The notes beneath the pieces are model-generated. The model did not search any database and was not told the DNA's origin. It worked only from the letters and a program-made list of their open reading frames with translations. Source: Microcoleaceae cyanobacterium (GTDB lineage: Bacteria; Cyanobacteriota; Cyanobacteriia; Cyanobacteriales; Microcoleaceae). Taken from it: a DNA stretch of 36,728 bases. The DNA lies in assembly GCA_051652765.1 (NCBI GenBank), contig JBOFUV010000084.1, forward strand, positions 1 to 36,728. The letters are read 5' to 3'. Shown here in pieces: positions 1 to 36,258 of the stretch; position 1 is the stretch's first letter, and the number at the start of each line of letters is the position of its first letter. The position numbers and the translations under genes are program-made.

Positions 1-2
1 TT

Positions 3-200
3 GCTATTGGCGGATCTTTGGCGGGTAAAAGCAAAAAGCTCAGAGCTGAAAACTTAAAGAGGCTTGATTTCTTCAGAGAAAAAGCTGAATCCATGACAAA
101 GGAAGAATTGGATCAAGCGATTGCTGAATTTGATAGAGAATTTGATGGCGATCCCCCAAAATCCCAAATCCTTATCCACATCAAAAAAAATAACGCCTGA
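3..200 (+). CDS. 3' end of a hypothetical protein, probably truncated by the window edge
   Basis: The frame is open from position 3 (AIGGSLAGKSKK...) to TGA at 198-200. The protein is charged and helical; no family recognised. Confidence 0.4.
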   Translation, partial: AIGGSLAGKSKKLRAENLKRLDFFREKAESMTKEELDQAIAEFDREFDGDPPKSQILIHIKKNNA

Positions 201-333
201 TGAATTCACCTCGTCGGTGAATCGCCCCCAGCGGGTTCGGCTGGTCGGTGGCTCTGAGGCAGAGCAGAAAGCCCACGCCTGGGCTAGCGGAGAAGGGCAG
301 CGCAGCCCTTCATCGCCTCTCCGAAAGGAGAGC

Positions 334-492
334 GAGATAGGGGCAAGGATGCATGGATTTTTTAGCAGAAATGGCGCTTAGCGCTTACTCCTTTCACGAG
401 TCCAGCTCCTTGTCTATCTATCTCTCCACAACAGGCTTTAAAGATGAATTGGTTATCACTTTGGGTGATTCGTGAGCCGTTTTAAGTGTGGA
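334..492 (+). ncRNA. Predicted IS110 bridge RNA with two stem/internal-loop/hairpin domains
   Basis: Domain 1: stem 334-360/398-424, internal loop 361-372 and 386-397, apical GGCGC-TTA-GCGCT. Domain 2: TCCACA 425-430/TGTGGA 487-492 enclosing ATCACT-TTG-GGTGAT. Loop segment 388-396 is the exact reverse complement of 2021-2029. The region lies directly upstream of an IS110 recombinase. Confidence 0.65.
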
Positions 493-522
493 AATAGCGT
501 AACCCTTTAATAGCTTAAAAAT

Positions 523-1959
523 ATGACACTTCGCATCATTGGTGGCGATGTGTGTCGGGGCTCCCTGGTTTGCTGGGAGCTGGGCACTGTGCCGAAAAAA
601 TTCAAGGAGCATTTCAAGGAAAACAAACGCAAGAGTACCAAGGCTAGCCCTGATCCGTTGCAGTTCCACTTGAATTCCCTGGGCGTAGCTGATTTTGTCA
701 GTTTCTTGGAAGGCTCCCATCCACTGACTGAGAACAAGGTTAAAGCAAATGCCTTGATCATGGAACCAACTGGAGTCCATTACTCATGGTTATTTGCGAA
801 AATCAGCGAGAGTCATGGAGTTCCGGTGCGGTGGGTAGGTCATCAAGAAGCGGTCTTTCTCCGTCGCCAGGAACGCCTACCCGATAAAAACGACCAGGCT
901 GATGCTCTAGCTCTAGCTTCCTACGCATTAAGCCATTGGGATAAAGGGGAATTCTTCCTCAATTTTTATCCCTTCCCGATAACAAGGATCAGGGAGTTGT
1001 TTCTACAGTTGCGATTCCTCAATCGGATACAGTCTCCGCTGATCAATCGGGGCAAACAGCAATTGTCTCGTGAATTCCCAGAAGCGGCCACCATGGAATC
1101 TCAACTTGCCTCAGATGGGCTTTCCCCCCTATGGGCTTGGTTAGCGGGGGAGAAACGAGAATTAAAAAGAGACCGTGACTACTATGGAAAGTTGTACAAA
1201 AAGTCGATTGCTGTAGAGTATGGCGTTGAGCTATGCAACTTTACCCGCACCGTTGCCGGGTTCTTGTGCAATATACACCGATGGGAACTAAAGCTAAAAA
1301 CAGAATTGTGTGAGCTGCTAGCCTATCCAGAGTTTGAGCCTTACATGAGGGTCTTTGATCGGTATGGATTTAAGCTCAAAGTTAAGGCGATTCTGCTGTC
1401 CCAAATTTATCCGATCAGTAGGTTTGATAATCTTGGCGGCTTCAAACGGCGACTGGGGTTTGGGCAAGTTGAGGAAAGTTCCGGGGACAAGAAAGGATTC
1501 AGGAAGGGAGGGGGTAGTCAGTTGTGTAAGGTGGAATTGAATTTGTGGGTTTACACTTGCATTGTTAGGCCAGAAAGACGGATATCGGCTGACAGAGTTC
1601 AGGAGATAGGGCGGTTTTACGATGAGCGCTTGGCTCGATTTACTTCCGATCCTCAGGTTGCCAAGATCAGAGCCATTGAGAAAATGTTTAAGGCTCAAGA
1701 GAAGCTAATTGAGTCCATGGAGAGACAGGCAAAAATCCAGGGAAGCTCCATGATGGAAGCCCAGGTCATGCTAATGAGGCAGAATCTAGATCTCACAAAG
1801 AAGACGATGGTTGAAGCTATCCGTCAGGGGGTGAATGTAAAAATTCCACAAGCAGAAGAGGAAAAGGCCGGGAAAAACTGCGGAATGTTAGTTGCTTGTC
1901 AGACTGCGGCATTCTCCCTCAGGCGCTTGTTTAAAGATCTCAAACAAACGGTTCTGTAA
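523..1959 (+). CDS. IS110-family transposase/recombinase (RuvC-like DEDD domain plus Tnp20-like Ser domain), divergent
   Basis: Motifs IIGGD, MEPTG, KNDQADALALA, GFGQVEESSG and GGSQLCKVEL, ending in FYDERL...GK...AFSLRRLF. Confidence 0.9.
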   Translation: MTLRIIGGDVCRGSLVCWELGTVPKKFKEHFKENKRKSTKASPDPLQFHLNSLGVADFVSFLEGSHPLTENKVKANALIMEPTGVHYSWLFAKISESHGVPVRWVGHQEAVFLRRQERLPDKNDQADALALASYALSHWDKGEFFLNFYPFPITRIRELFLQLRFLNRIQSPLINRGKQQLSREFPEAATMESQLASDGLSPLWAWLAGEKRELKRDRDYYGKLYKKSIAVEYGVELCNFTRTVAGFLCNIHRWELKLKTELCELLAYPEFEPYMRVFDRYGFKLKVKAILLSQIYPISRFDNLGGFKRRLGFGQVEESSGDKKGFRKGGGSQLCKVELNLWVYTCIVRPERRISADRVQEIGRFYDERLARFTSDPQVAKIRAIEKMFKAQEKLIESMERQAKIQGSSMMEAQVMLMRQNLDLTKKTMVEAIRQGVNVKIPQAEEEKAGKNCGMLVACQTAAFSLRRLFKDLKQTVL

Positions 1960-1964
1960 CTGTT

Positions 1965-1998
1965 AATTCCCCCAGCAATTATTGTTGGGGGAATTTTA
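1965..1998 (+). terminator. Strong hairpin / intrinsic terminator after the recombinase
   Basis: AATTCCCCCAGCAAT-T-ATTGTTGGGGGAATT, with one G-U pair on the + strand, ending in TTTT. Confidence 0.7.
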
Positions 1999-2084
1999 AG
2001 AGAGCGATATCGTCGTAAGATGAAAGGAGAGAAATTTAGCCGAGTCCAATCCATCCAGAACCTAGTGCATTGAGGGGATGAAAA

Positions 2085-5240: not shown

Positions 5241-7154
5241 GAACGAATCCGGGTTCAGGTAAAATTCAAATCTCTCTTGCAACTGCTGAACCGTTAACCC
5301 TTGAGTCCAGTGCTCAACTAGAGCATGACCCAAAGCCCAAGCATTCCGATCGGGTGTGCCAAAATTGTTTAGTAAAAGCGGCCAGAGGGCCATCAGCTCA
5401 AAGTTCAGGGGTTTTTCATCGGTTTCCTTTAGCAAGGAAAATAAGTCGTAAGCCATTTGGAGCTTGCCAATCACAACCGGCAACTGTTCCACCGGAATTT
5501 GTTCTGCCAACACATAAGCCAAGCTTGGTGACCCAGTTGTTAAGGTGGCAATAAATTGGAGGACTGGACTTTTGAGCAGAGCTGTCAACCCTTGGGTTGT
5601 CGCCATTTGAAAGGTGTAGTGATCAATAATTTTCGCAGCAGCCACGGTTCGAGCGTCCAGGTTTCGCAAAAATCGCGCCAATCTGAGTTGTTTGGCTGGG
5701 TTAATCGCTTCCACCAATACCACGGAGAGAACATCAATATTCCAGGCCAAGCGGCCTGTCTGTCCATCTGCGGTAACAATCGGCAAAATCCGGTCACAAA
5801 ATTCTCCAAGTTGCTCAGTCCGATAGGCCGTGGCAGCCTGAATCGCAATTTCTTTAGGGCGCTTCCCAAATTGCCAGTCGTAGGGCGGATTCCATTCCCG
5901 CAGCGGTCGTAACCGATCCACTTGGGTAACAACCGCGATCGCGGGTAAATCTCTTACCTCTGCTTTCATATCCCGAAGAAAGTCAGCATCCATCTGTAGT
6001 GCTGGGTCGAGGGCAGGAGTGACAAGCAACAACAGATCCGCAGTATTGGCATAGTCCAACACCAAGTCCCGCAGGTCAGTCCGGTTCACCTGTTCATACC
6101 CAGGAGTATCCCACAGCGTCAGGGTTTCGCCTGTGGTTCCTTGCCAATGATACTGTTTAACGTGATCTGTACTGGGCAACACATCTACCGCCGCCAAATC
6201 CATCTGGAACACCGTATTGATCAAACTACTCTTGCCTGCTCCAGTGCGCCCCACAAGCAAAATATTCACGGGTTTTTGTGCTACCACTTCCACAGGTTCC
6301 GCTTTTGCCAGAATCTCCTGGAGAGTTTTAGTTTTGGCTTTGGGTAGGGTCTGAGTAGAAACAGACGGCTCAACCGGCAAGGCTTTGCCACTGTAGAGCG
6401 CAATCGCTTGTTGGCAAAGGGTGCGTAAGGCGTTCTCTCGCAAGGCTTGACTCAGGTTGACCAATAGTTCTTGGGTGGCGCGATCGTTTGAGCGTTGGGT
6501 GGTTTGGCGAGCTAGGGCGGCGGCGGGGTTGATCAACCACTGGGCCCAACTCCAAACTTGCCAAAGTCGGCGAGCTGAAGGCTCTAACTGACGATAGACT
6601 TCATAGGCTTGATAAGCTTGTCCAACCGTGACCTGGTTTAAGGTTGGGGACAATTTTTGCATCCACCGATCAGTCTCGTCTACGGTTCCCCGGATGAGTC
6701 CGTAGGCTTGGGGAACATAAATATTCAGCAGGGGGTACTTGACTTCAGGATGATAGACCTGGGCAACTTCGACCACGACCGTTTGACAACGCTGCCAAAA
6801 TGTCCCCCAATCCTCCCAAACCGGAGGATCGTTGCGGGTCTCGTTCAAGATACCCTGCAACGCAATTTCTAGCTTGCTCACTGCTTCATGCTGAGGCAGG
6901 GCTGCCATCTCCAGGGTTTGGGCCTTGATCTCCTGATCTACCTCTGCCACCGCCGTTGCCAACTGAGCGGCTATCGGTTTTGTCCACTTCACCAATAGCC
7001 ACCGCCAACCGACAAGAACCAGGGTAAAGATTGCCCAAATCCAGCTCAGGCCCCACTCATGAATTTGCCAACCTGCTGCTCCCAAAAGGAACGCAACAAT
7101 GAAGCCGATGGGAAGGATTAACACTACCCATTGCCAAGGTTTGAGTCGCATCAT
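5229..7154 (-). CDS. Membrane-anchored P-loop GTPase (Era/MMR_HSR1-like domain with a YcjF/DUF697-like C-terminus)
   Basis: Two N-terminal TM helices, G1 GRTGAGKSS, G3 DTPG, G4 TQVD. Confidence 0.85.
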   Translation of the reverse strand: MMRLKPWQWVVLILPIGFIVAFLLGAAGWQIHEWGLSWIWAIFTLVLVGWRWLLVKWTKPIAAQLATAVAEVDQEIKAQTLEMAALPQHEAVSKLEIALQGILNETRNDPPVWEDWGTFWQRCQTVVVEVAQVYHPEVKYPLLNIYVPQAYGLIRGTVDETDRWMQKLSPTLNQVTVGQAYQAYEVYRQLEPSARRLWQVWSWAQWLINPAAALARQTTQRSNDRATQELLVNLSQALRENALRTLCQQAIALYSGKALPVEPSVSTQTLPKAKTKTLQEILAKAEPVEVVAQKPVNILLVGRTGAGKSSLINTVFQMDLAAVDVLPSTDHVKQYHWQGTTGETLTLWDTPGYEQVNRTDLRDLVLDYANTADLLLLVTPALDPALQMDADFLRDMKAEVRDLPAIAVVTQVDRLRPLREWNPPYDWQFGKRPKEIAIQAATAYRTEQLGEFCDRILPIVTADGQTGRLAWNIDVLSVVLVEAINPAKQLRLARFLRNLDARTVAAAKIIDHYTFQMATTQGLTALLKSPVLQFIATLTTGSPSLAYVLAEQIPVEQLPVVIGKLQMAYDLFSLLKETDEKPLNFELMALWPLLLNNFGTPDRNAWALGHALVEHWTQGLTVQQLQERFEFYLNPDSFGLN

Positions 7155-7234
7155 GCGTTTTGCCCCATTGATTCAAATCAATTCTAGCGCTGAACCTGTC
7201 TGGATTCTCTCCAGCGAACACTCTTTAAGATAAG

Positions 7235-7252
7235 GGTGCTAGATCTAGCACC
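7235..7252. terminator. Perfect 18-bp palindrome just after the queD-like stop; probable terminator or operator
   Basis: GGTGCTAGATCTAGCACC equals its own reverse complement. Confidence 0.5.
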
Positions 7253-7257
7253 AGGTT

Positions 7258-7716
7258 TTACGCCAGATCTGACGCAAGCTTTAAGATCGTTATGCGGTTG
7301 GGGGTCTCTGAAACACTGACCTTGAGCAGTTGCCCATGGGAATCTACGGGAATTTGAGCAAAGTAAAGGCAGATCTCCTCAGTTGTGCCGTGGGGACAGG
7401 CCGGATGTTGGTTAATCACTGCGGGTAATTGCTCAATCCAGAAGGCCAAGCGATTTTCCATTTCGACCATATCCAGTCCATACAGGTCTCCGGGTTGACA
7501 GATCGCCTGCAATTCCAGGGTAACTTCGAAGGTATGAACGTGCAGATCAAACCAGATGGGTGGGTTGCAATGCTGTCGGCGAAAGCTGCCTTTGATGCAG
7601 TACGTGAACGTGATCGCCCCCTGTTGATGCTGTTGATGGGGGGGGATGACATTTTGACAGGGAATCTGAACGCTATCTTGCCGGTGGGAAGGACAGTGGG
7701 AATGACTGTTGTGCAT
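7258..7716 (-). CDS. QueD/6-pyruvoyl-tetrahydropterin synthase-like T-fold protein, atypical
   Basis: F..QH...LHVHTFEV, GLDM, IN......GTTEEI and V.VSET follow the PTPS motif order. It starts 5 bp after the queE stop. Confidence 0.7.
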   Translation of the reverse strand: MHNSHSHCPSHRQDSVQIPCQNVIPPHQQHQQGAITFTYCIKGSFRRQHCNPPIWFDLHVHTFEVTLELQAICQPGDLYGLDMVEMENRLAFWIEQLPAVINQHPACPHGTTEEICLYFAQIPVDSHGQLLKVSVSETPNRITILKLASDLA

Positions 7717-9891: not shown

Positions 9892-11724
9892 ATGGACTTA
9901 AATCCTCAGCTTCCCGACCCCGTAGACCCTGAGTTACAAATTGATCCAAAACCAATCGATATTTTGATTGTTGATGATCAAGCGACTAACCTGAGGCTAC
10001 TCACTAAAGTGCTTAATCGGGCAGGATATGAGGTACGACAGGCGATTAATGGAGAAATTGCTCTGCAGGCTATTCAAGCACGTCAGCCTGATTTAGTGAT
10101 GTTGGATATTATGATGCCAGAGGTGGATGGATACCAGGTCTGTACTAAGTTGAAATCCAATATAGAAACTGCTCATATTCCTGTGATTTTCCTGAGTGCC
10201 TTGGATGATGTGTTCGATAAGGTCAAAGCGTTTTCCCTGGGAGCGGTGGACTACATTGGCAAACCCTTTCAAGCTCAAGAGGTTTTGGCGCGTGTTCGAC
10301 ATCATTTGGCCCTACAGGAGACCAATCGTAAAATTACTCACCTCAATCTGCAACTAGAGCAACAGGTCAAAGATCGTACCCAACAACTCGAAGACATTCA
10401 CGCTCGCCTGCGGCAATTGGCGCTTTACGACGAGTTGACCGGGCTGCCGAATCGAGCTTTGTTTTTAGACCATTTGGAAACCGCCCTCAAGGCAGCTCAA
10501 TCCGACCCCAACTATCAATTTGCCGTCTTATTTTTGGACTGCGATCGCTTCAAAGTGATTAATGACTCCCTAGGCCACTCTGCGGGGGATGAGTTACTCA
10601 CAGTTGTGGCTGATCGATTACAGAGTACTTTGCCCAAAGTGAATGTCTTGGCCCGGTTAGGCGGCGACGAATTTGCCATTCTACTCACCCCTTTGTACCA
10701 AGTGGATGAGGCGATTACCATTGCCGCACAAATTGTACAGACTTTGACTCACCCCTTTCAGCTCAAAGGTTACGAGGTCTATGTTAGTGTGAGTATGGGC
10801 ATTGCGATTGGCAATAGTAGCTATACTCAACCCCTACAAATTCTACAGGACGCGGATACTGCCATGTATCGAGCCAAGGCAAGTGGCGACCCTTGCTATC
10901 AAGTCTTTGATCCTCAAATGCATCAGAAAGCGTTTCAGTTTTTGCAGATTGAAACAGACTTACGCAGGGCTATTTTTCACCAAGAACTTCATCTGAATTA
11001 CCAGCCCATTGTAGATTTAAATACCGAAAAGTTAGTTGGGTTTGAAACCCTGGCGCGGTGGCACCATCCTGAACGGGGGTTTATTCCGCCGGGGGATTTT
11101 ATTCCAGTGGCGGAGGAAACAGGTTTAATTGTGCCGTTGGGCAATTGGATTCTCTATACCGCCTGCAAACAGCTTCAAGCTTGGCAAGATCAGGAATTGC
11201 TGAATTTTGACTTGACCTTGAGTATCAATTTATCAGCAAAACAGTTTAACCAACGATACTTAGTTCAACAAATTGATCAGGTTGTAGGTGAGATGAAACT
11301 TAACCCTAAATTCCTCAAACTTGAAATTACAGAAAGTGTCATTCTTGAAAACCTAAAAATCGCACAATCTTTGCTGGAGGAGTTGCGCGATCGCCAAATT
11401 TCAATTTGTTTAGACGACTTTGGTACAGGCTATTCATCTTTAAATTATCTCCGCTGTTTTCCGATTGATACCCTCAAGATTGATCAATCTTTTATTCGCC
11501 GTTTAGATGGCAGTTCAGAAAAATTAGGATTGGTTCCTGTGATTATTAATATTGCTCAAACGATGAATATGACTGTTATTGCCGAAGGAATTGAGACATT
11601 AGATCAACTCAAGCAACTGAGAAGTTTAGATTGTCACTGTGGTCAGGGATATCTATTCTCTAAACCTGTGGATTCAGAGATAGCAACTCAAATGTTGATT
11701 GCTCAACAGACAGCCCGCTACTAA
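9892..11724 (+). CDS. Response regulator diguanylate cyclase/phosphodiesterase (REC-GGDEF-EAL)
   Basis: ILIVDD and [28 protein letters not shown] (ETL variant) and [11 protein letters not shown]. The ATG at 9892 is preferred over the TTG at 9850. Confidence 0.93.
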
Positions 11725-12611: not shown

Positions 12612-13232
12612 TTATAGCTTGTAGAAGTAGGCAACACCGGGCAGAACATCAGTTGTTCCCTGGACTCGTTTCAAGCGCCATACTAGGGTGTCTGCTTCAG
12701 TCTTCAACTCCGCTTCAGCCAGTTCTAACCCCTGTTGGTTGAAAATCTCAAGATTAGCCACCTCCCCATCCACATCTCCCACGATACTCAATGCTCCGGA
12801 TTGGCTGCCGCTACCATAGTTCTCAGCAGTGATCACACCTCCGATTTTGCCCTGGCCTACTTGGGTAATTTCCAGATCCATCCGGTGGGTTGCACGCACG
12901 TCTCCTTCAGTACTCCAGTTACCAACAAAGCTAGTATCAATTTCGTTCGGTTTAGCTGGATCTGGTGTTCCCACCGGCGAGGAAGCAATCGGAGTTGGAG
13001 TTTCAGCAACGGGCGAAGCAATCGGAGTTGGAGTTTCCATAGTTGGGGAAGTAATTGGAGTTGGAGTTTGAACAACGGACGAAGCAACAGGAGCCTGGGT
13101 TTCAGCAACTCCTGGGGAGGAAGGAAAAATCTTTTCCCAATTTTGTAGCAGAGCAACTCCCACTGCACTGAACAAACCAATCAGAGCAATCATAACCTCT
13201 GCTCGCAAACCTTTACCGTTACCTTCTGCCAT
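12612..13232 (-). CDS. Hypothetical membrane-anchored protein with a Pro/Thr-rich repeat linker and a beta-rich C-terminal domain
   Basis: N-terminal hydrophobic helix, TPTPIASP repeats, and a FVGNWS-initiated C-terminal domain. Confidence 0.75.
   Translation of the reverse strand: MAEGNGKGLRAEVMIALIGLFSAVGVALLQNWEKIFPSSPGVAETQAPVASSVVQTPTPITSPTMETPTPIASPVAETPTPIASSPVGTPDPAKPNEIDTSFVGNWSTEGDVRATHRMDLEITQVGQGKIGGVITAENYGSGSQSGALSIVGDVDGEVANLEIFNQQGLELAEAELKTEADTLVWRLKRVQGTTDVLPGVAYFYKL
12982..13113. repeat. Four 33-bp coding tandem repeats
   Basis: GAAGCAATCGGAGTTGGAGTTT... units encode (E/Q)TPTPIASP-like peptides. Confidence 0.8.
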
Positions 13233-13627
13233 AGGAAAAAAGTAGAAACTAATAACTTTTCTTATAGTAATTCAAACATCGTTTAAGTCCTAGCCCGCTC
13301 CGAATCACAACTGTTGATGGGTCAAACTAGATCTCAAAGCGGGCTGAGGGCTTCACTACAAGTTTCACCAATTTTTCCTGATTGCCAGGGTGATCTTGAG
13401 TAGCCCTGAAATGAGAGTTCAACCTTTTGCGTTGAACTCCCATCAACAAAAACTACTGTTTTCAAAAGCTACTGACTTAAAAAACTGGTTTTTTAAAACT
13501 ACTATATCTATGGCAGTCCAAAATGACTAATGCAATGGGATAAAAAGTTGTTGTCTCTTCTGAGGGATTGTGTCTCCAAACCCCACTTTGGTTTTTTGCA
13601 ACTTTTTTTGCAACTTGCTTTTGTAAT

Positions 13628-15604
13628 TCATTTAGGATTGCTAGAATAACCCAAATAGGGAAATAATCTAGTGCCGCTTCTTCTATTTTTATTGATCAAA
13701 TCATTAACAGCACTATTTTGGATTTCCCTAACCAGTACTTCATACCCTCTTGCTGTTGGCAAATAAGAACGAGTTAAGATTGCAACTTGGGAATTTTCAT
13801 TGATATACTGAGGCTGGGGTGGTGTAACGTCCGGAATATCTGAGTTGATATAAATGAATCCTCCCAAAACTTCTGTTACTCCCTGATTTTTGGTTTCAAG
13901 AATAGTACCGGGCTTCTCAGTTTTAAGCCCTAAGATCCATAAGACTCCACCATCATTCAAGATTTTTGCCTCTGATTCTGATGGTATTGCTTCAACATTT
14001 AAACCTCTAGCCCAAACTTTCTGTTGATGGATTCTAATTAAGCCTGAAACAATATCTTCCAAGAAGACATCTCCCATCCCAGCATTGGTATTGCTATAGG
14101 ATTCAAGTGCTGAATGCTTAATCACCAGTTGACGTTTTGAGTTGTGTTCAATGCTAGCTCTTTCTAATCTTTCTAGTGAAACAATAGGTTCGTCTCCATC
14201 CTCAAAGCGAAAGGTAGGGATTGTTGAATTATTTGAAAATCGGGCTCCCATTCCGATAATCTTGCTGATACTTCCTCTGATTTGAATAGTTTTGTCAACG
14301 GTGTATACACGGTTGGGTAAAAATACAGTTTTTGCATTAGGAGTATCAATGGCAACTTGGATATCAGCTCCTGAACTTCCTTGAACTATAGAAATAGCAT
14401 CTAAATTGTGCTGAATATAAGGCGTTTCTTCAATGGGTAGATTCATCATCTTTGTTGCTGCTGAAAACCCAGTTAGAGGTTGACTACAAGTCCATTCTTC
14501 AATATTGCCTTGCAATGTTTCAAGTTGCCCAGTTTCACAATTATAAACTTTTGCAGTATCTCGGTATCCAGTCTGTTTGACATCCGATAAAAAGGTCTGA
14601 ATTGTACGTTTTTCGCCAGGAGTTCCAATTCCACTTTCTCGATATTGAGTTTCAATCGCTGTTGTGCTCTTACCATCAACTCCGGCTAATTCAGCATGAA
14701 TCAAAGCAAGGGTGGCGCGATGCCCTTCAACAAAAATAGCAGGAACACGATTGACACTTTTAAGGTTCCGAATAGTGACAACTTGCATGGCTTGTTCAAT
14801 CCCAAACTGCTTTTGATCTCGAACAGTCACATTTTCCATGTGGACTGAGTTGGTTGGGCCGCCGCCAACAAGAATACCTCGATCAAAGCCCGTGATTGTG
14901 ATATTTTTAATCAATATTGGGCCGATTTCTACTGCTGTTAGATCAAGACCACGGGAACCCTGACCATCACCAGAAACAATCGAAACATCAAAAACTCCTC
15001 CGCCATTATTAGAGTTAATCTTGATACCAATGGCATTGGAATTTCCAGATCCTGTATTGACCGTCAGGTTCTCAATGCGATTCCGAAATCCGTTCGCTCG
15101 ATTATGCCTGGTATCAATCACAGGTTTGCTTTCCCCATTGGAAAATCCAGGAGCATGATCTTGGAGTTTGATCATACTTTCTGTTTGACTTTCACCCATT
15201 AAAGTCGTTCGTTTATAGTAAAGCCCTCCATGAGCACCTTGAGGCCACTCAATAGTGTTGCTAACCAAATAAGTCCCTTTCGGTACATAGATAATTTTGT
15301 TACCATTCGCAATTTCATCTCGTGTCATCGCCAGTCTAAAGGCTTCGGTATCATCTGTTATCCCATCTCCTACAGCACCATAATTTTTGATATTAATAAC
15401 GCCTCCTTTTCCTTCTTCAAGCTCAGGAAAGACTTCATTGCGAGCAGAAGAAACAAGAGAATGGGGCTGGAAAGCAAAACTTTCCGAATTAGAAGAAAGT
15501 AGCTGCTGTTCAAATTCTGATAGGCGTTGAGGTAGAAAAATCTTAATTGCTAAGTAAGACGAAAGCGTCCCTAAAATTGCTAAAAATAGAATGATTTTAT
15601 GCAT
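13628..15604 (-). CDS. Secreted beta-helix glycanase (GH55 / pectate lyase superfamily)
   Basis: Signal/TM N-terminus; INIKNYGAVGDGITDDTEAF...IYVPKGTYLVS; second repeat IQVAID...VFLP...Y. Confidence 0.85.
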   Translation of the reverse strand: MHKIILFLAILGTLSSYLAIKIFLPQRLSEFEQQLLSSNSESFAFQPHSLVSSARNEVFPELEEGKGGVINIKNYGAVGDGITDDTEAFRLAMTRDEIANGNKIIYVPKGTYLVSNTIEWPQGAHGGLYYKRTTLMGESQTESMIKLQDHAPGFSNGESKPVIDTRHNRANGFRNRIENLTVNTGSGNSNAIGIKINSNNGGGVFDVSIVSGDGQGSRGLDLTAVEIGPILIKNITITGFDRGILVGGGPTNSVHMENVTVRDQKQFGIEQAMQVVTIRNLKSVNRVPAIFVEGHRATLALIHAELAGVDGKSTTAIETQYRESGIGTPGEKRTIQTFLSDVKQTGYRDTAKVYNCETGQLETLQGNIEEWTCSQPLTGFSAATKMMNLPIEETPYIQHNLDAISIVQGSSGADIQVAIDTPNAKTVFLPNRVYTVDKTIQIRGSISKIIGMGARFSNNSTIPTFRFEDGDEPIVSLERLERASIEHNSKRQLVIKHSALESYSNTNAGMGDVFLEDIVSGLIRIHQQKVWARGLNVEAIPSESEAKILNDGGVLWILGLKTEKPGTILETKNQGVTEVLGGFIYINSDIPDVTPPQPQYINENSQVAILTRSYLPTARGYEVLVREIQNSAVNDLINKNRRSGTRLFPYLGYSSNPK

Positions 15605-34419: not shown

Positions 34420-36258
34420 TTACTTCAACTCTGTCGTAACATTACTATCGCTTCCTAAAACAACTTCTTCATATCTGCCTGATCTGACTATCCGGCCTCG
34501 ATCCAGAACATAAACTCTGTCACAATGCTCAACTGTCGCGAGTCGGTGAGCAATGATTATCATCGTTTTCATTCCACTGAGAGAGTTGATTGCCTGAGTA
34601 ACCAGATTCTCTGTATCGGTATCGAGTGCTGCTGTTGCCTCATCCAACACTAGAACTTCCCTGCCATGGTAAAGCGCCCGTGCAATGCCTACGCGCTGTC
34701 GCTGGCCTCCAGATAGCAATACCCCACGCTCCCCAACCATAGTCTTCAAACCGCTCGGAAGATTGGCAATGACTTCTTCCAGCTGAGCAGCCTGAATTGC
34801 TTTTCCTAACCTTTCAGCATCAACTAAATGATCGGGTACGCCGAAAGCAATGTTCCTCTCAACAGTGTCGTCGATTAAGAAAATAGATTGAGGAATATAG
34901 CCAACCAGATCCTGCCATGCTCTTACTTTCCCGTCATAGATAGACTGCCCATCGACTTGAATATCTCCAGACTGGGGAATTAACAGCCCTAGAATCACAT
35001 CAACCAAGGTCGTTTTTCCTGCTCCCGATTTCCCAATCAAGGCAATGGATTGCCCTTTCTTCAAGGTTAATGAAATACCTTCCAGAGCATTGATTTCAGC
35101 ATCAGGATAGTGATACTTAATATCACTTAATGTAACCTCATACTCTAGTTCCAACCCTTCCGAGTACTGACTATTAATCGACCCATTTCTCTGGCCTGAT
35201 AGAGACGGCAAGTACATTAGAGCTTTGTCACTTTCTTGATCAAATCTATCAAACTCCTTCAAATCAGCGTAAAGCTTATTAACAGCATAACTTGAATTTT
35301 TCAGTGTACTGATTCCATTAGTAACATTGGTCATCGCTGGAATTAAACGAATTGAAACCAGGGCAAAAACACTGAGGGTCGGCATCAGCTTTTGAATATC
35401 CTGACCCAGCAGCAAAGAAACAACAATAAAACCCAGTAGAAAAACAACAATGATCGTTTCTATGAGGACACGAGGAGACAGCTTATAAGCATAAAACTTC
35501 GATGCAGCATCCGTAAAACGTTGCGCTTGTATCGCGACTTGAGATTCAAAATATGGCTCACAACCAATAACTTTCGTCTCCTTTATTCCCCCTAATCCAT
35601 GATTAATAATCCGAATAGTTTCCTGATCTGACTGAGAAGCTTCCTTGCCCCAGGCACTAATTTTATTCTTGAACAAGTTGAAAAATACAAGCAGTGGTAA
35701 CACAATCCCTAGAATCACCACTACAGCTAGGACATTCGTAACGACCAGCAAAATGGATAGAGACGCAGCAACAATGCAGTTCGAAGTCGAGTTCAGTAAA
35801 GGGATCAAAACACGCTCTGAAAACTGCTTTGTTTCCGTGATTAAGTTCTGAATAATATGAGAACTATTCTTACTGAGATGAAAAGCGTAAGGAGCGTTAA
35901 GATATGAGTGCATTAACTTCTTTGTCAAGTCACATTTGCGCCTGTAGGTGTATCTGAATATTGCTGTCTGAACACACCAACTCACAAAGGACTTAACACA
36001 GAATATCAGGATGATGACAACTCCCATCAGAGCCACAAAATCTCTTTCCTTTTGCAGTCCCAAAAGCTGATATAGCCATTCTAGAGCTGCTGCTTGATGA
36101 ATGATCTGGGGATTGGCAGATAGTGTCATGAATGGGCCAACAACTCCTAGCCCAAAGACTTCTAGTACTGAGACTCCTATAAATGAAAGAATCAGAAAAA
36201 TTAAACTGCTTTTCTTCCCTGGCAAAATATAGAGAACTTTTGAAAGATATCTAGCCAT
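34420..36258 (-). CDS. ABC exporter, fused TMD-NBD (HepA/PglK-like glycan flippase)
   Basis: TM domain, GKSGAGKTT, LSGGQRQR, VLDEATAALD, IAHRL. Confidence 0.93.
   Translation of the reverse strand: MARYLSKVLYILPGKKSSLIFLILSFIGVSVLEVFGLGVVGPFMTLSANPQIIHQAAALEWLYQLLGLQKERDFVALMGVVIILIFCVKSFVSWCVQTAIFRYTYRRKCDLTKKLMHSYLNAPYAFHLSKNSSHIIQNLITETKQFSERVLIPLLNSTSNCIVAASLSILLVVTNVLAVVVILGIVLPLLVFFNLFKNKISAWGKEASQSDQETIRIINHGLGGIKETKVIGCEPYFESQVAIQAQRFTDAASKFYAYKLSPRVLIETIIVVFLLGFIVVSLLLGQDIQKLMPTLSVFALVSIRLIPAMTNVTNGISTLKNSSYAVNKLYADLKEFDRFDQESDKALMYLPSLSGQRNGSINSQYSEGLELEYEVTLSDIKYHYPDAEINALEGISLTLKKGQSIALIGKSGAGKTTLVDVILGLLIPQSGDIQVDGQSIYDGKVRAWQDLVGYIPQSIFLIDDTVERNIAFGVPDHLVDAERLGKAIQAAQLEEVIANLPSGLKTMVGERGVLLSGGQRQRVGIARALYHGREVLVLDEATAALDTDTENLVTQAINSLSGMKTMIIIAHRLATVEHCDRVYVLDRGRIVRSGRYEEVVLGSDSNVTTELK

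Follow-up and report, generated by a model that had tools for sequence, protein, structure and literature searches.

The window, the whole 36,728-nucleotide stretch of cyanobacterial DNA analysed here, opens with the 3′ end of a gene (1..193; ORF 3..200), followed by a structured region (194..478), an intact gene for a 478-amino-acid protein (523..1959), the putative right end of a mobile element (1960..2024) and ycf34 (2085-2333; assigned by Pfam PF10718, E 6e-39). All features described below lie on the + strand. An earlier note on this DNA had interpreted the locus as an IS110-family recombinase gene preceded by a bridge RNA. All of its sequences and coordinates agreed with the letters of the window, and its interpretation was partly supported, being right in kind and wrong in two details: the core with its register, and the size of the element.

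The predicted recombinase and the predicted structured RNA upstream of its gene

The protein encoded at 523..1959 matched the NCBIfam model NF051857 'IS110 family transposase' with 348.8 bits against a cut-off of 180 (E 4e-104). With the IS621-like model NF033542 'IS110 family RNA-guided transposase' it scored 35.5 bits, below the cut-off of 140; it belongs to a sister clade rather than to the IS621 clade. Pfam DEDD_Tnp_IS110 was matched weakly and under its cut-off (E 0.004), and Transposase_20 gave no match. Residues D9, E81, D124, D127 and S320-G321 were invariant across 33 homologs; their putative counterparts in IS621 are D11/E60/D102/D105 and S241-G242 (PMC11208158). The AF2 model (pLDDT 86.7) matched the folds of IS621 and RuvC, and the top 10 Foldseek matches were all IS621/ISCro4-bRNA synaptic complexes (E 2e-7 to 4e-6, target-normalised TM 0.56-0.59). 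By sequence, neither the protein nor an 8-sequence profile matched a PDB chain. S320-G321 sits in the sole stretch of the model with pLDDT below 50; for IS621, the S241 loop is reported to be disordered in two of four protomers (PMC11208158). The NF051857 match, the conserved residues and the predicted fold identify the product as a predicted IS110-family DEDD/Ser recombinase, as had been proposed.

Structure in the region upstream of the gene was assessed with RNAalifold and pair counting. The minimum free energy (MFE) fold of 300-522 was more stable than shuffled sequences (z = -3.48), and across 36 homologous but non-identical RNA regions 95.1% of cells were paired in the four helices of the consensus, compared with 70.6% after shuffling. 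Indeed, none of 500 shuffles reached the observed value, slid controls gave 27-64%, and compensatory changes were found in 15 of the 19 consensus pairs. The predicted target-binding stem-loop (334..424) comprises consensus helices 1 and 2, both covarying. The fold described for it in the earlier note was borne out: the MFE structure has an apical hairpin at 373-385 and a two-sided internal loop in addition to the stem 334-360/398-424, which is conserved at 355-360/398-403. The predicted donor-binding stem-loop (434..478) comprises the covarying consensus helices 3 and 4, with a stem at 434-438/474-478 and a small hairpin at 451-453/458-460. Preceding both is a 5′ domain (domain 0, 194..333) that starts with the family-wide motif (C)CGCCTGATGA at 194-203, which opens the conserved region in all homologs. 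The consensus fold of domain 0 (23 sequences) showed compensatory changes in 8 of 14 pairs, and the domain was 84% identical to that of a second element, on contig C92. The RNA is thus predicted to be about 300 nt long and to consist of three domains: the 5′ structured domain, the loop for target binding and that for donor binding.

Searches of Rfam returned no matching family; nine weak matches all scored under the gathering score, and none was relevant. A search for sigma-70-like promoters gave one site in 2,100 nt (2.2 expected), which lies within the coding sequence, and none upstream of the RNA. Nor does the RNA sit beside the left terminus, where a promoter rebuilt at the right end/left end junction could transcribe it: it starts 13.6 kb from that terminus.

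Guides, core and element ends

The left target guide (LTG), UUAGCAGAA at 362..370, carries the top-strand sequence of the left target (LT) plus the core. It matched the DNA to the left of the element's left end at all nine positions (G000:C94, …ACATTAGCAGAA/TCCCCACAG; slashes mark junctions). Among relatives, the agreement was 9/9 in L064 and L092, where the left target lies about 12 kb upstream on the same contig, and in L074 and L073, where it lies on another contig of the same genome; it was 8/9 in L091 and in L084, whose element is roughly 10 kb. The LTG therefore matched the far left junction in 7/7 elements examined (9/9 in five, 8/9 in two).

The right target guide (RTG), CUCCUUUCA at 388..396, was read in the earlier note as CTCCTTTCA, the exact reverse complement of TGAAAGGAG at 2021-2029, and this identity is present in the window. 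GAA+AGGAG is matched in reverse complement by positions 388-395. The next base, A396, is complementary not to the A in the target but to the T before GAA in the donor, and is thus handshake-like. The right target (RT) AGGAG (2025..2029), complementary to RTG 388-392, is host DNA and lies 55 nt upstream of ycf34. Covariation of loop and target among homologs had been proposed as a check on the bridge-RNA reading, and was found: in 24 non-redundant elements with a located right end, the RTG matched its own right flank over at least five consecutive positions in 16. The mean run was 4.1 compared with 0.63 after permutation, and none of 10,000 permutations reached the observed mean. Eight of the 24 gave no clean run; among these, one lies directly against a left end, another is truncated where its contig stops, and a third had a script-register problem.

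The left donor guide (LDG), AAGAUGAA at 441..448, repeats the sequence of the element's right end together with the core. The earlier note had seen AAGATG at 441-446 repeated at 2017-2022; the identity extends to eight nucleotides (AAGATGAA, 441-448 and 2017-2024). Across relatives the variants AAAGTGAA, AGAGTGAA, AGAGTAAA, AAAGTAAT and AAAATGAA were each present both in the loop and at the element's own right end. The right donor guide (RDG), GGGUGAUUC at 463..471 (reverse complement GAATCACCC), pairs with GAA+TC and then, past a single RNA base left unpaired, with CCCA, both in the sequence around the left end TCCCCACAG of contig C94. The same pattern of five pairs, a bulge and four pairs occurred in L091 (left end TCCCCAGAG) and in L084, in which a changed left end (TCTCTAGG) goes with a changed guide (GAATCCTCTAAAA in reverse complement). 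The pairing of RDG and right donor (RD) is short (5+4) and needs one unpaired base. A contig from Nostoc contains a right end/left end junction, AAAGTGAA/TCCCCAGAGAG, that is exactly the predicted donor.

In the window the guides thus matched at 9/9 (LTG), 8/8 plus one (RTG), 8/8 (LDG) and 5+4 positions with one bulge (RDG), and all four guide-DNA relations covary across relatives, with five variants behind LDG-LD and two behind RDG-RD. The roles given to 388-396 (right target guide), to 441-448 (left donor guide) and to the 5′ strand at about 362-370 (left target guide) in the earlier interpretation were retained, and helix covariation and guide-DNA matches bore out its placing of a target-binding and a donor-binding loop upstream of the gene. 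That the loop-flank matches are coincidental or reflect an mRNA leader structure, the region being merely the 5′ UTR of the recombinase gene, is scarcely credible: the absence of a matching Rfam family would fit such a leader, but it has to be set against the strong helix covariation, the covariation of all four guide-DNA relations, the RTG-RT mean that 0/10,000 permutations reached, and the use of the guides to resolve the assembly graph for two elements (see below).

In the right end of the element (1960..2024), a G+C hairpin (about 1966-1996) is followed by AAGAT, the left donor, at 2017-2021 and by GAA, the core, at 2022-2024. The right junction lies within 2017-2029, where it had been expected. 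Similarity among relatives stops directly after …GTGAA, and the empty site of L091 starts right after GAA. L091 measures 11,624 bp and has its two junctions on a single contig; its site was found uninterrupted in two genomes (…TAGAAAGAA/AGGGACG). Its insertion was precise: the occupied site reads …AAGAA/element/AGGGA and the empty site …AAGAA/AGGGA, with no other duplication.

These sites bear on the core. The earlier note correctly located AGCAGAAATG at 364-373 and concluded that the two target guides overlap on TG. This conclusion was wrong: the empty and occupied sites of L091 put the overlap on GAA, and the window's own left junction, TTAGCAGAA/TCCCC, likewise gives GAA. The target that had been proposed, AGCAGAAA-TG-AAAGGAG, is replaced by TTAGCAGAA/AGGAG, taken from the left junction on C94. 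As a 17-mer, AGCAGAAATGAAAGGAG, the former target had no exact match in the genome and 19 near-matches (at most three mismatches) compared with 14 for the control. LTG and RTG overlap on GAA, and the RNA that precedes this IS110-type recombinase gene of a cyanobacterium has the appearance of a true bridge RNA, with a GAA core.

The proposed 15.7-kb element, its cargo and its empty sites

The left junction, …TTAGCAGAA/TCCCCACAG, was located 13.8 kb upstream, on contig C94. In the assembly graph, window 1-99 forms a node common to C92, C94 and C87, with two in-edges and two out-edges, and the C94-C84 join rests on this 99-nt overlap, synteny and guide logic rather than on one contiguous assembly. 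The left target on C94 matched the window RNA, and that on C87 (ATTCAGAA/TCCCCACAGG) matched the RNA of the C92 element (GGATTCAGAAG); the guides thus pair C94 with the window and C87 with C92, and resolve the assembly graph correctly for two elements. By these joins the RNA and recombinase (194-2024) would form the right-hand 1.8 kb of a mobile element of 15,723 bp, and the gene end at 1..193 would lie inside this large element and not in flanking host DNA. Genes upstream of the module were homologous between loci, and right flanks were unrelated.

The left flank on C94 is a PolyA_pol-head gene whose orthologues lie directly before ycf34 in two related genomes (G005 and G001). The right flank of the window aligned to both genomes next to these orthologues, and the two flanks abut there within 3-4 nt, as at an empty site. 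The element very probably inserted between the CCA-adding-enzyme-like gene and ycf34. The earlier note had named an empty allele lacking AGCAGAAA before TGAAAGGAG as evidence against its model. G001 and G005 indeed lack it, and only the register is refuted thereby; the bridge-RNA idea stands.

A genome of the same genus, G002, was considered as an empty site and rejected. Before ycf34 it reads TCGTAAGATGAA/AGGAGA, which includes the element's own right tip, and the site is thus a remnant or another element. At that site G002 carries lepA and a small membrane-protein gene upstream. Other candidates were also set aside. A left target directly left of the CCGCCTGA motif was matched at no locus. 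The predicted junction TAGCAGAATCACCCAAAG occurred with two mismatches at C105:855, within what its translation indicates is an uninterrupted superoxide-dismutase-like coding sequence, and this match is attributed to chance. A loose left-end pattern search for L070 and L084 gave counts at the control level and was replaced by contig inspection.

These boundaries are at odds with the compact insertion sequence, bounded just upstream of the RNA, that had been proposed: the left end lies 13.8 kb away on another contig. Such an IS110 element of about 1.7-1.8 kb, having TG as its core and AGCAGAAA-TG-AAAGGAG as its target, would explain why homolog conservation begins sharply, in the manner of an element end, at the CCGCCTGA motif (window 194). 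AGCAGAAA also recurs at 263-270, and the 3′ strand of the donor loop is, in the subfamilies with a short recombinase, complementary to CGCCTGA. However, the DNA left of the motif never matched the LTG, which instead matched the far left junction in all seven elements; the genes left of the motif, as opposed to the right flanks, were homologous between loci; and the empty sites lack the entire 11.6-kb or 15.7-kb stretch. The copy at 263-270 falls in the conserved AGAAA…CACGCCTG hairpin region of domain 0, and the 17-mer was not enriched in the genome. A compact element is therefore highly improbable, and the 15,723-bp element is retained.

The cargo of this element comprises about 20 ORFs. Among their products, annotation was obtained for a peptidoglycan hydrolase encoded by the left end, for a repeat protein resembling tail fibres and for a small tyrosine recombinase. 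The last, a recombinase/invertase of 191 aa, matched Pfam PF00589 (E 6.5e-39), and NF007370 under its cut-off; with such an enzyme in the cargo, another enzyme than the bridge recombinase might move or rearrange the island. Two cargo proteins of 609 aa and 528 aa belonged to no Pfam, NCBIfam or PHROG family and gave no usable ESM Atlas match and no phage match. The source genome holds one copy of the element. Related elements of 10-16 kb were found at different guide-matched sites in different genomes. Comparison of the window cargo with that of L091, from Nostoc, by tblastx gave nothing at E 1e-6. The layout of the annotated cargo recurs in a Nostoc element without detectable common cargo sequence. 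Relatives of the recombinase were absent from IMG/VR viral contigs and from deposited phage genomes. Nostoc genomes contained 3-9 left-end motif matches each (pattern, at most one mismatch) and one module of the subfamily.

Some of these observations would suit a different history, in which the 15.7-kb unit would be a fossil: an ancestral element, once compact, grew by capturing neighbouring DNA in half-match or one-ended events, and at present only parts move, or nothing does, or the tyrosine recombinase moves the island. The single copy, the tyrosine recombinase in the cargo, and the several left-end motif matches beside one module in Nostoc all fit this history, the CCGCCTGA motif could be a relic of the old left end, and the preprint of Hu, Xie, Yang & Rubin (bioRxiv 10.64898/2026.08.14.744561) describes expansion by progressive additions, with whole-unit mobility declining with size and mobilisation of the larger systems mostly partial. 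Against it, LTG and RTG match both ends of the full-length unit in seven elements, and the last insertion would thus have involved the complete unit. In L084 the RDG and the far left end have co-varied, the related 10-16-kb elements occupy different guide-matched sites, and the window has an intact ORF and perfect guide matches. A fossil unit is accordingly considered unlikely.

Proposed mechanism, significance and comparison with known systems

In all probability, window 194-2024 is the recombination module of the 15,723-bp mobile element, with one RNA and one recombinase. This reading is supported by the covariation in the RNA, the four guide-DNA matches, both junctions, the empty sites and the recombinase fold. 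By analogy with IS621, the RNA would bridge target and donor DNA. The target TTAGCA-GAA-AGGAG, predicted in full as TTAGCAGAAAGGAG, would be read by the target loop through LTG 362-370 in top-strand sense and RTG 388-395 as reverse complement. Recombination at or within the shared GAA would insert the whole element, giving LT-GAA-left end … right end-GAA-RT with no other duplication. The predicted circle junction is AAGATGAA/TCCCCACAG, i.e. …CGTAAGATGAA/TCCCCACAG…. Transcription of the RNA, its binding by the recombinase, circularisation of the element and the exact cleavage positions are presumed in this scheme, and the whole 15.7 kb would still move as one unit.

A broader role can be proposed more tentatively. 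The module may serve as a programmable integrase for cyanobacterial integrative elements of 10-16 kb that form one coherent family, may be virus-like and move whole, although we hold this to be somewhat doubtful. Its members would share a layout: a left-end peptidoglycan hydrolase and a small tyrosine invertase, joined in the window's element by a tail-fibre-like protein. One RNA would then conceivably read donor ends 10-14 kb apart, and 4-6-nt guide variables per element might let several elements live side by side, each at a site of its own. Donor ends are related between divergent recombinase subfamilies (the window, C92 and C116 types, 35% identical): TCCCCACAG is the left end of both the window and the C92-linked elements, and right ends read (A/G)AG(A/T)TGAA; some cross-mobilisation is imaginable on this basis. 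The CCGCCTGA motif at the RNA start might, as a tentative suggestion, be a relic of a compact ancestor's left end.

Bridge recombinases are sought as programmable tools for inserting large DNA without double-strand breaks. Literature searches returned nothing on cyanobacterial bridge RNAs, and the clade is a natural, so far undescribed one that carries 10-16 kb of cargo, a GAA core, a three-domain RNA and an RNA distant from the donor junction. It bears on cargo size limits, on core flexibility and on RNA expression away from joined ends. Its members form a natural reprogramming series, in which the differences between closely similar RNAs are mainly confined to 4-6 bases of the loops and every RNA fits its own site, and a cyanobacteria-native system could serve genome engineering there. 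For annotation, the lesson is that element boundaries cannot be read from the start of conservation around a recombinase.

Siddiquee et al. reportedly described, in 2024, an IS1111-group seekRNA, or right-end bridge RNA. This group has RNA-guided DEDD recombinases of the same family as the one predicted in the window, but the IS1111 RNA lies downstream of the gene in the right end, and the window RNA lies upstream, as in the IS110 group. Mention of the IS1111 right-end RNA is also made in PMC11208160.

The IS621/IS110 group (Durrant et al. 2024, PMC11208160; Hiraizumi et al. 2024, PMC11208158; ISCro4 PDB 9T56) has a DEDD RuvC-like domain and a Tnp domain with a Ser-Gly loop; the window's recombinase has the same predicted fold, the DEDD RuvC-like domain and a putative Tnp domain with a conserved Ser-Gly. 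In both, the RNA lies upstream of the recombinase gene and has two internal loops, target first and donor second. For IS621, the 5′ guide strand is described as top-strand sense and the 3′ strand as complementary, both including the core (PMC11208160). As in the window, all four guides read the core, and the RTG base beside the core fits the donor, as a handshake guide. Several features differ. The guides overlap on CT in IS621 and on GAA here (AAA or AAT in sister subfamilies), and the window RNA is about 300 nt with an extra structured 5′ domain of about 140 nt. It lies 13.6 kb from the left end that it reads, and a promoter rebuilt at the joined ends would thus sit 13.6 kb off, unlike in IS621. 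The element is 15.7 kb long with about 20 cargo ORFs, the 478-aa recombinase is 16-18% identical to the solved ones and belongs to NF051857 and not NF033542, and the RDG pairs with a one-base bulge.

A further parallel is with the large cargo-bearing IS110 elements preprinted in 2026 by Hu et al. As described there, recombinase and bRNA lie inside a bounded element far above 1.5 kb, the outer flanks are complementary to LTG and RTG, and boundaries were taken from occupied and empty sites, all as in the window. The preprint takes as large elements those above 2 kb with an IS110 gene and with LTG/RTG matching the outer flanks, and the window's element, at 15,723 bp, is of this kind. For 1,474 of its 2,999 loci it records no other transposase or integrase; the window's element carries the 191-aa tyrosine recombinase/invertase. 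It also reports that whole-unit mobility falls as element size grows and that mobilisation of larger systems is mostly partial. The cargo described in the preprint is mostly plasmid-derived and rich in resistance genes, and a word search of its text found no cyanobacteria named, whereas the window's cargo is unannotatable save for the hydrolase, the tail-fibre-like protein and the tyrosine recombinase. Instead of ad hoc expansions, the window's family seems to consist of coherent units, 10-16 kb in size, whose left end is conserved, and the clade can be regarded as a cyanobacterial variant of the known large cargo-bearing IS110 elements.

A recombinase preceded by a conserved RNA

The recombinase of the window, an ORF of 478 aa at 523-1959, matched the NCBIfam model NF051857 'IS110 family transposase' (E 3.9e-104, 348.8 bits, cut-off 180) and remained below the cut-off of the IS621-type model NF033542 (35.5 bits, cut-off 140). 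Pfam searches returned a weak DEDD_Tnp_IS110 match and nothing else on the recombinase, and identified the neighbouring ycf34 at 2085-2333. Residues D9, E81, D124, D127 and S320-G321 were invariant in 33 homologs; those of IS621 are described as D11/E60/D102/D105 and S241-G242 (PMC11208158). Searching the PDB with the recombinase sequence gave no match. An AlphaFold2 model generated from the homolog alignment (mean pLDDT 86.7, pTM 0.68, only residues 318-324 below pLDDT 50) was compared with the PDB by Foldseek; all of the top ten matches were chains from IS621 or ISCro4 complexes that contain bridge RNA (E 2e-7 to 4e-6, target-normalised TM 0.56-0.59, 16-18% identity), and TIGR-Tas, Nop5/Nop56-type chains and RuvC ranked next. 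The genome contained the element in a single full copy. Recombinase homologs in related genomes were 43-55% identical in amino acid sequence, and the 44 loci found among one-genome-per-species contigs were all cyanobacterial (Nostoc, Anabaena, Calothrix, Okeania, Dapis and others).

Folding of 300-522 (-73.7 kcal/mol, z = -3.48) reproduced the structure described in an earlier note from the sequence alone, a long stem (334-360/398-424) carrying an apical hairpin above a two-sided internal loop, and predicted a second stem-loop after it. No relevant family was returned by an Rfam search of the window. For 36 non-identical homologous regions equivalent to window 326-490 (alignment A2), RNAalifold predicted a pair of stem-loops, both containing an internal loop and topped by a small apical hairpin, and compensatory changes at 15 of the 19 consensus pairs. 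By pair counting, 95.1% of cells were paired versus 70.6% in shuffled alignments (0/500 reached the observed value) and 27-64% in slid controls, and the covariation score was 0.684 versus 0.229 and 0.04-0.21, respectively. Across relatives the loop strands consisted of a fixed frame and a short variable window: UUUUA-N(4-5)-GAA-(A/G)UG for the 5′ strand of the first loop, (G/A)TGAA-N(5-6) for the reverse complement of its 3′ strand, UUUAA(A/G)AGUGAAUUG for the 5′ strand of the second loop (AAAGAUGAAUUG in the window), and GGGUGAUUCGUGA for its 3′ strand.

An extra RNA domain, window 194-333, was kept in all relatives and folded into helices, with compensatory changes at 8 of 14 pairs (23 sequences); a promoter scan upstream of it gave no promoter-like site. 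The conserved part of every element started with (C)CGCCTGA(T/C)GA, at window position 194, and the TGA inside CCGCCTGA was the stop of an upstream ORF in 16 of 42 motif-bearing loci, some of them duplicates. The motif CCGCCTGA(T/C)GA (window 194-203 and homologs) marked the start of the RNA region, and in short-recombinase subfamilies the 3′ donor-loop strand was complementary to CGCCTGA. The motif may be a left-end relic of a compact ancestor, or may serve as an RNA-RNA contact.

Element ends, guides and core

In the relatives, similarity between elements stopped directly after (A/G)AGTGAA, and the 5′ strand of the second loop was identical to the right end of its own element in five variants (AAGATGAA in the window; AAAGTGAA and AGAGTGAA, AGAGTAAA and AAAGTAAT in relatives; AAAATGAA in the relative L084). 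The 3′ strand of the first loop (right target guide, RTG) was the reverse complement of GAA and the next 5-6 bases of its own flank. Among 24 non-redundant elements with a placeable right end, 16 gave runs of at least 5 consecutive RTG-flank matches; the mean run was 4.13 versus 0.63 for permuted flanks (maximum 1.83), and 0 of 10,000 permutations reached the observed value. Among the remaining loci, L059 (run 0) has a left end as its 'flank', L083 matched at all 3 bases available before the contig end, L063 scored 0 by script and 5 by eye with the end moved one A earlier, and right-end placement at L085 is doubtful; L064 (3), L070 (3), L072 (2) and L067 (0) are without explanation.

In the window, the earlier note had pointed to AGCAGAAATG at 364-373, to CTCCTTTCA (388-396) as the exact reverse complement of TGAAAGGAG (2021-2029), and to AAGATG at 441-446, repeated at 2017-2022. 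All were present, and the last identity extends to AAGATGAA (441-448 = 2017-2024). The guide roles it gave to 388-396 and 441-446 agree with the right-flank matches and right-end identity in relatives. A perfect G+C hairpin at 1966-1996 (AATTCCCCCA…TGGGGGAATT) lies inside the right end, just past the recombinase stop codon; it was not called by a terminator scan, and its Rfam NsiR1 match was weak and sub-threshold (E 2.5).

The left boundary was not at the 194 motif: the first-loop 5′ strand (left target guide, LTG) did not match the DNA left of the motif in any locus. Genes left of the motif were homologous between loci and right flanks were unrelated, except in two orthologous pairs, so that the mobile unit must be larger than a compact element. 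The right flank of the Nostoc element L091 was uninterrupted in two other Nostoc genomes (…CCCTCTAGAAAGAA/AGGGACGATG…, the slash marking the junction), and in the L091 genome the left half of that site lay 11.6 kb farther upstream within the one contig (…TAGAAAGAA/TCCCCAGAGAGTTAGAC…), giving an element of 11,624 bp. Its 5′ loop strand UUAGACAGAAAUG matched the left target TAGAAAGAA at 8/9 positions and ended on GAA, and its 3′ loop strand read GAA+AGGGA. The LTG and RTG thus overlap on GAA, and the TG core proposed in the earlier note was not borne out by the empty and occupied sites.

A genome search for the window LTG followed by GAA and TC led to contig C94, minus strand (…GTGTAAGTTACATTAGCAGAA/TCCCCACAGTTTTTC…), where TTAGCAGAA at the junction was identical to window 362-370 (9/9). 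The first 99 bases of C94 repeat window 1-99 in reverse complement. Left of the junction lies a PolyA_pol-head (CCA-adding-enzyme-like) gene, whose orthologue stands directly upstream of ycf34 in the related genome G005 and the same-genus genome G001, and by local alignment the gap between the two flanks was 4 nt in G005 and 3 nt in G001. C94 and the window were linked because of this overlap, the flanking gene, its orthologue before ycf34 and the near-abutting flanks. The empty sites read …CTACATTAACAGAAAGGGCATTGAGG… in G001 and …TACATTAGCTAATAAAGGAC… in G005. The element is 15,723 bp long, with TTAGCA-GAA-AGGAG as its target.

A further in-edge of this 99-nt node comes from contig C87, and a further out-edge leads to C92. 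Two more IS110-like modules of this genome lie on C92 and C116 (L003/L028), with recombinases 35-36% identical to that of the window (35% for C92). They have in common with the window module a CCGCCTGATGAAT start and domain 0 (84% identity between window 194-333 and its counterpart in the C92 element), and the rest of their RNA is laid out differently, in the order RTG-like, left-donor-guide-like, LTG-like. The C92 module (1-1860; L002/L034) has its left junction 21.5 kb upstream on C87, …GAATTCAGAA/TCCCCACAGG (also given as ATTCAGAA/TCCCCACAGG). Its RNA contains GGAUUCAGAAG, and its guides fit the C87 left junction; it also contains CAAUAUUUUC, fitting its own right junction AGAGTGAA/AATATTAC. 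Since the guides of both elements fit, the four contigs are paired consistently, which was taken as an independent check. Overall, the RNA is most probably a true bridge RNA, in which the earlier note had the guide strands right and the core register and element size wrong.

Several other sites resembled parts of the element. On contig C131, at ~97753 (minus strand), 16 nt were identical to the left junction (TAGCAGAATCCCCACA) inside a gene that, by translation reading alone, appears to be an intact chlorophyll-binding (CP43/IsiA-like) gene; no similarity to C94 extended beyond the 16 nt, and the match is either chance or a half-site. In the same-genus genome G002 (L036, C163, ~1445-1475), TCGTAAGATGAA/AGGAGA before ycf34 equals the last 12 bases of the window element and the right target. 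This site is without a large element and is preceded by lepA and by a small membrane-protein gene that tblastn did not detect in the window's genome; the sequence is probably what is left of an element. A short dispersed repeat of ~50 nt that has nothing to do with the element lies downstream of ycf34 (~2462-2515), with copies of 75-86% identity on 10 further contigs of this genome.

Left junctions and donor ends in relatives

LTG and left target matched at 9/9 positions in the window (junction on C94, 13.8 kb upstream), L064 and L092 (same contig, ~12 kb upstream), and L074 and L073 (another contig of the same genome), and at 8/9 in L084 (same contig, element ~10.0 kb), as in L091; ~4 of the 9 positions discriminate, and non-cognate junctions reach 6-8/9 since T, A and GAA do not vary. 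Both L084 junctions lie on one contig, GAGTGGAA/TCTCTAGGA… and …AAAATGAA/ATGCT.

The 3′ strand of the second loop pairs with GAA+TC, leaves one RNA base unpaired and then pairs with another four left-end bases. Its reverse complement is GAATCACCCA in the window and GAATCTCCCA in L091, both with core and left end GAA+TCCCCA, and GAATCCTCTA in L084, with GAA+TCTCTA; in L084, donor guide and left end were altered together. The predicted donor junction, AAAGTGAA/TCCCCAGAGAG, was found where a right end runs straight into a left end, in a Nostoc contig of 8.8 kb (L169, G072:C90, index 4761 in element orientation; L059 ~2653), the ends of which do not overlap, so that tandem copies and circle-derived reads are not separable. 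In the L092 element (L139, G068:C83, ~35384-35412) the left end opens with a 15-nt tandem duplication, GAATCCCCAGAGAAT twice, and so offers two possible donor sites.

The left-end motif AATCCCCAGAGAGT (at most 1 mismatch) occurred 3-9 times per genome in five Nostoc genomes (L111-L140) versus 0-1 in the control, and several matches were …GAA/TCCCCAGAGAG junctions with differing left targets. Each of these genomes held one RNA-recombinase module of the window's subfamily by blastn. The surplus left ends may derive from other recombinase subfamilies, or from decayed or non-autonomous elements.

Cargo and comparison with known systems

The C94 part of the element holds ~20 ORFs. They include an endolysin-like C39-type cysteine peptidase adjoining the left end (Pfam E 1.9e-11; PHROG 'endolysin' E 2e-54), a tail-fibre-like repeat protein (PHROGs E 6e-30) and a mid-element tyrosine recombinase/invertase of 191 aa (Pfam E 6.5e-39); the other ORFs scanned, including proteins of 609 and 528 aa, gave no match. 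L091 carries a peptidoglycan hydrolase (GH108 and PG-binding domain) adjoining its left end and a small mid-element tyrosine recombinase. This arrangement occurs in both elements despite no detectable common cargo sequence. Hydrolase and tyrosine recombinase are at 13197-13763 and 3329-3901 of C94 (L110), and at 10629-11408 and 6965-7588 of locus L109 for the L091 element. Searches of IMG/VR and of phage records for relatives of the recombinase were negative, and a virus-like nature is thus only hinted at.

Large IS110 elements with cargo, up to ~100 kb in size, are the subject of an August 2026 preprint (10.64898/2026.08.14.744561), the text of which does not mention cyanobacteria. Literature on bridge RNA and IS110, including cyanobacteria, held no description of this clade among the matches listed. 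As described for IS621 (PMC11208160), the first loop would read the target and the second the donor, the 5′ strands are in top-strand sense and the 3′ strands complementary, and all four guides would read the core. The RTG base beside the core, A396, is complementary to the T of …GAT/GAA, fitting donor and not target, and would by analogy resemble the handshake guides of IS621 (PMC11208158). The window system differs from IS621 in its guide overlap of three bases (GAA), its RNA of ~300 nt with three domains placed 13.6 kb from the left terminus, its element size of 15.7 kb, and its recombinase from a divergent clade.
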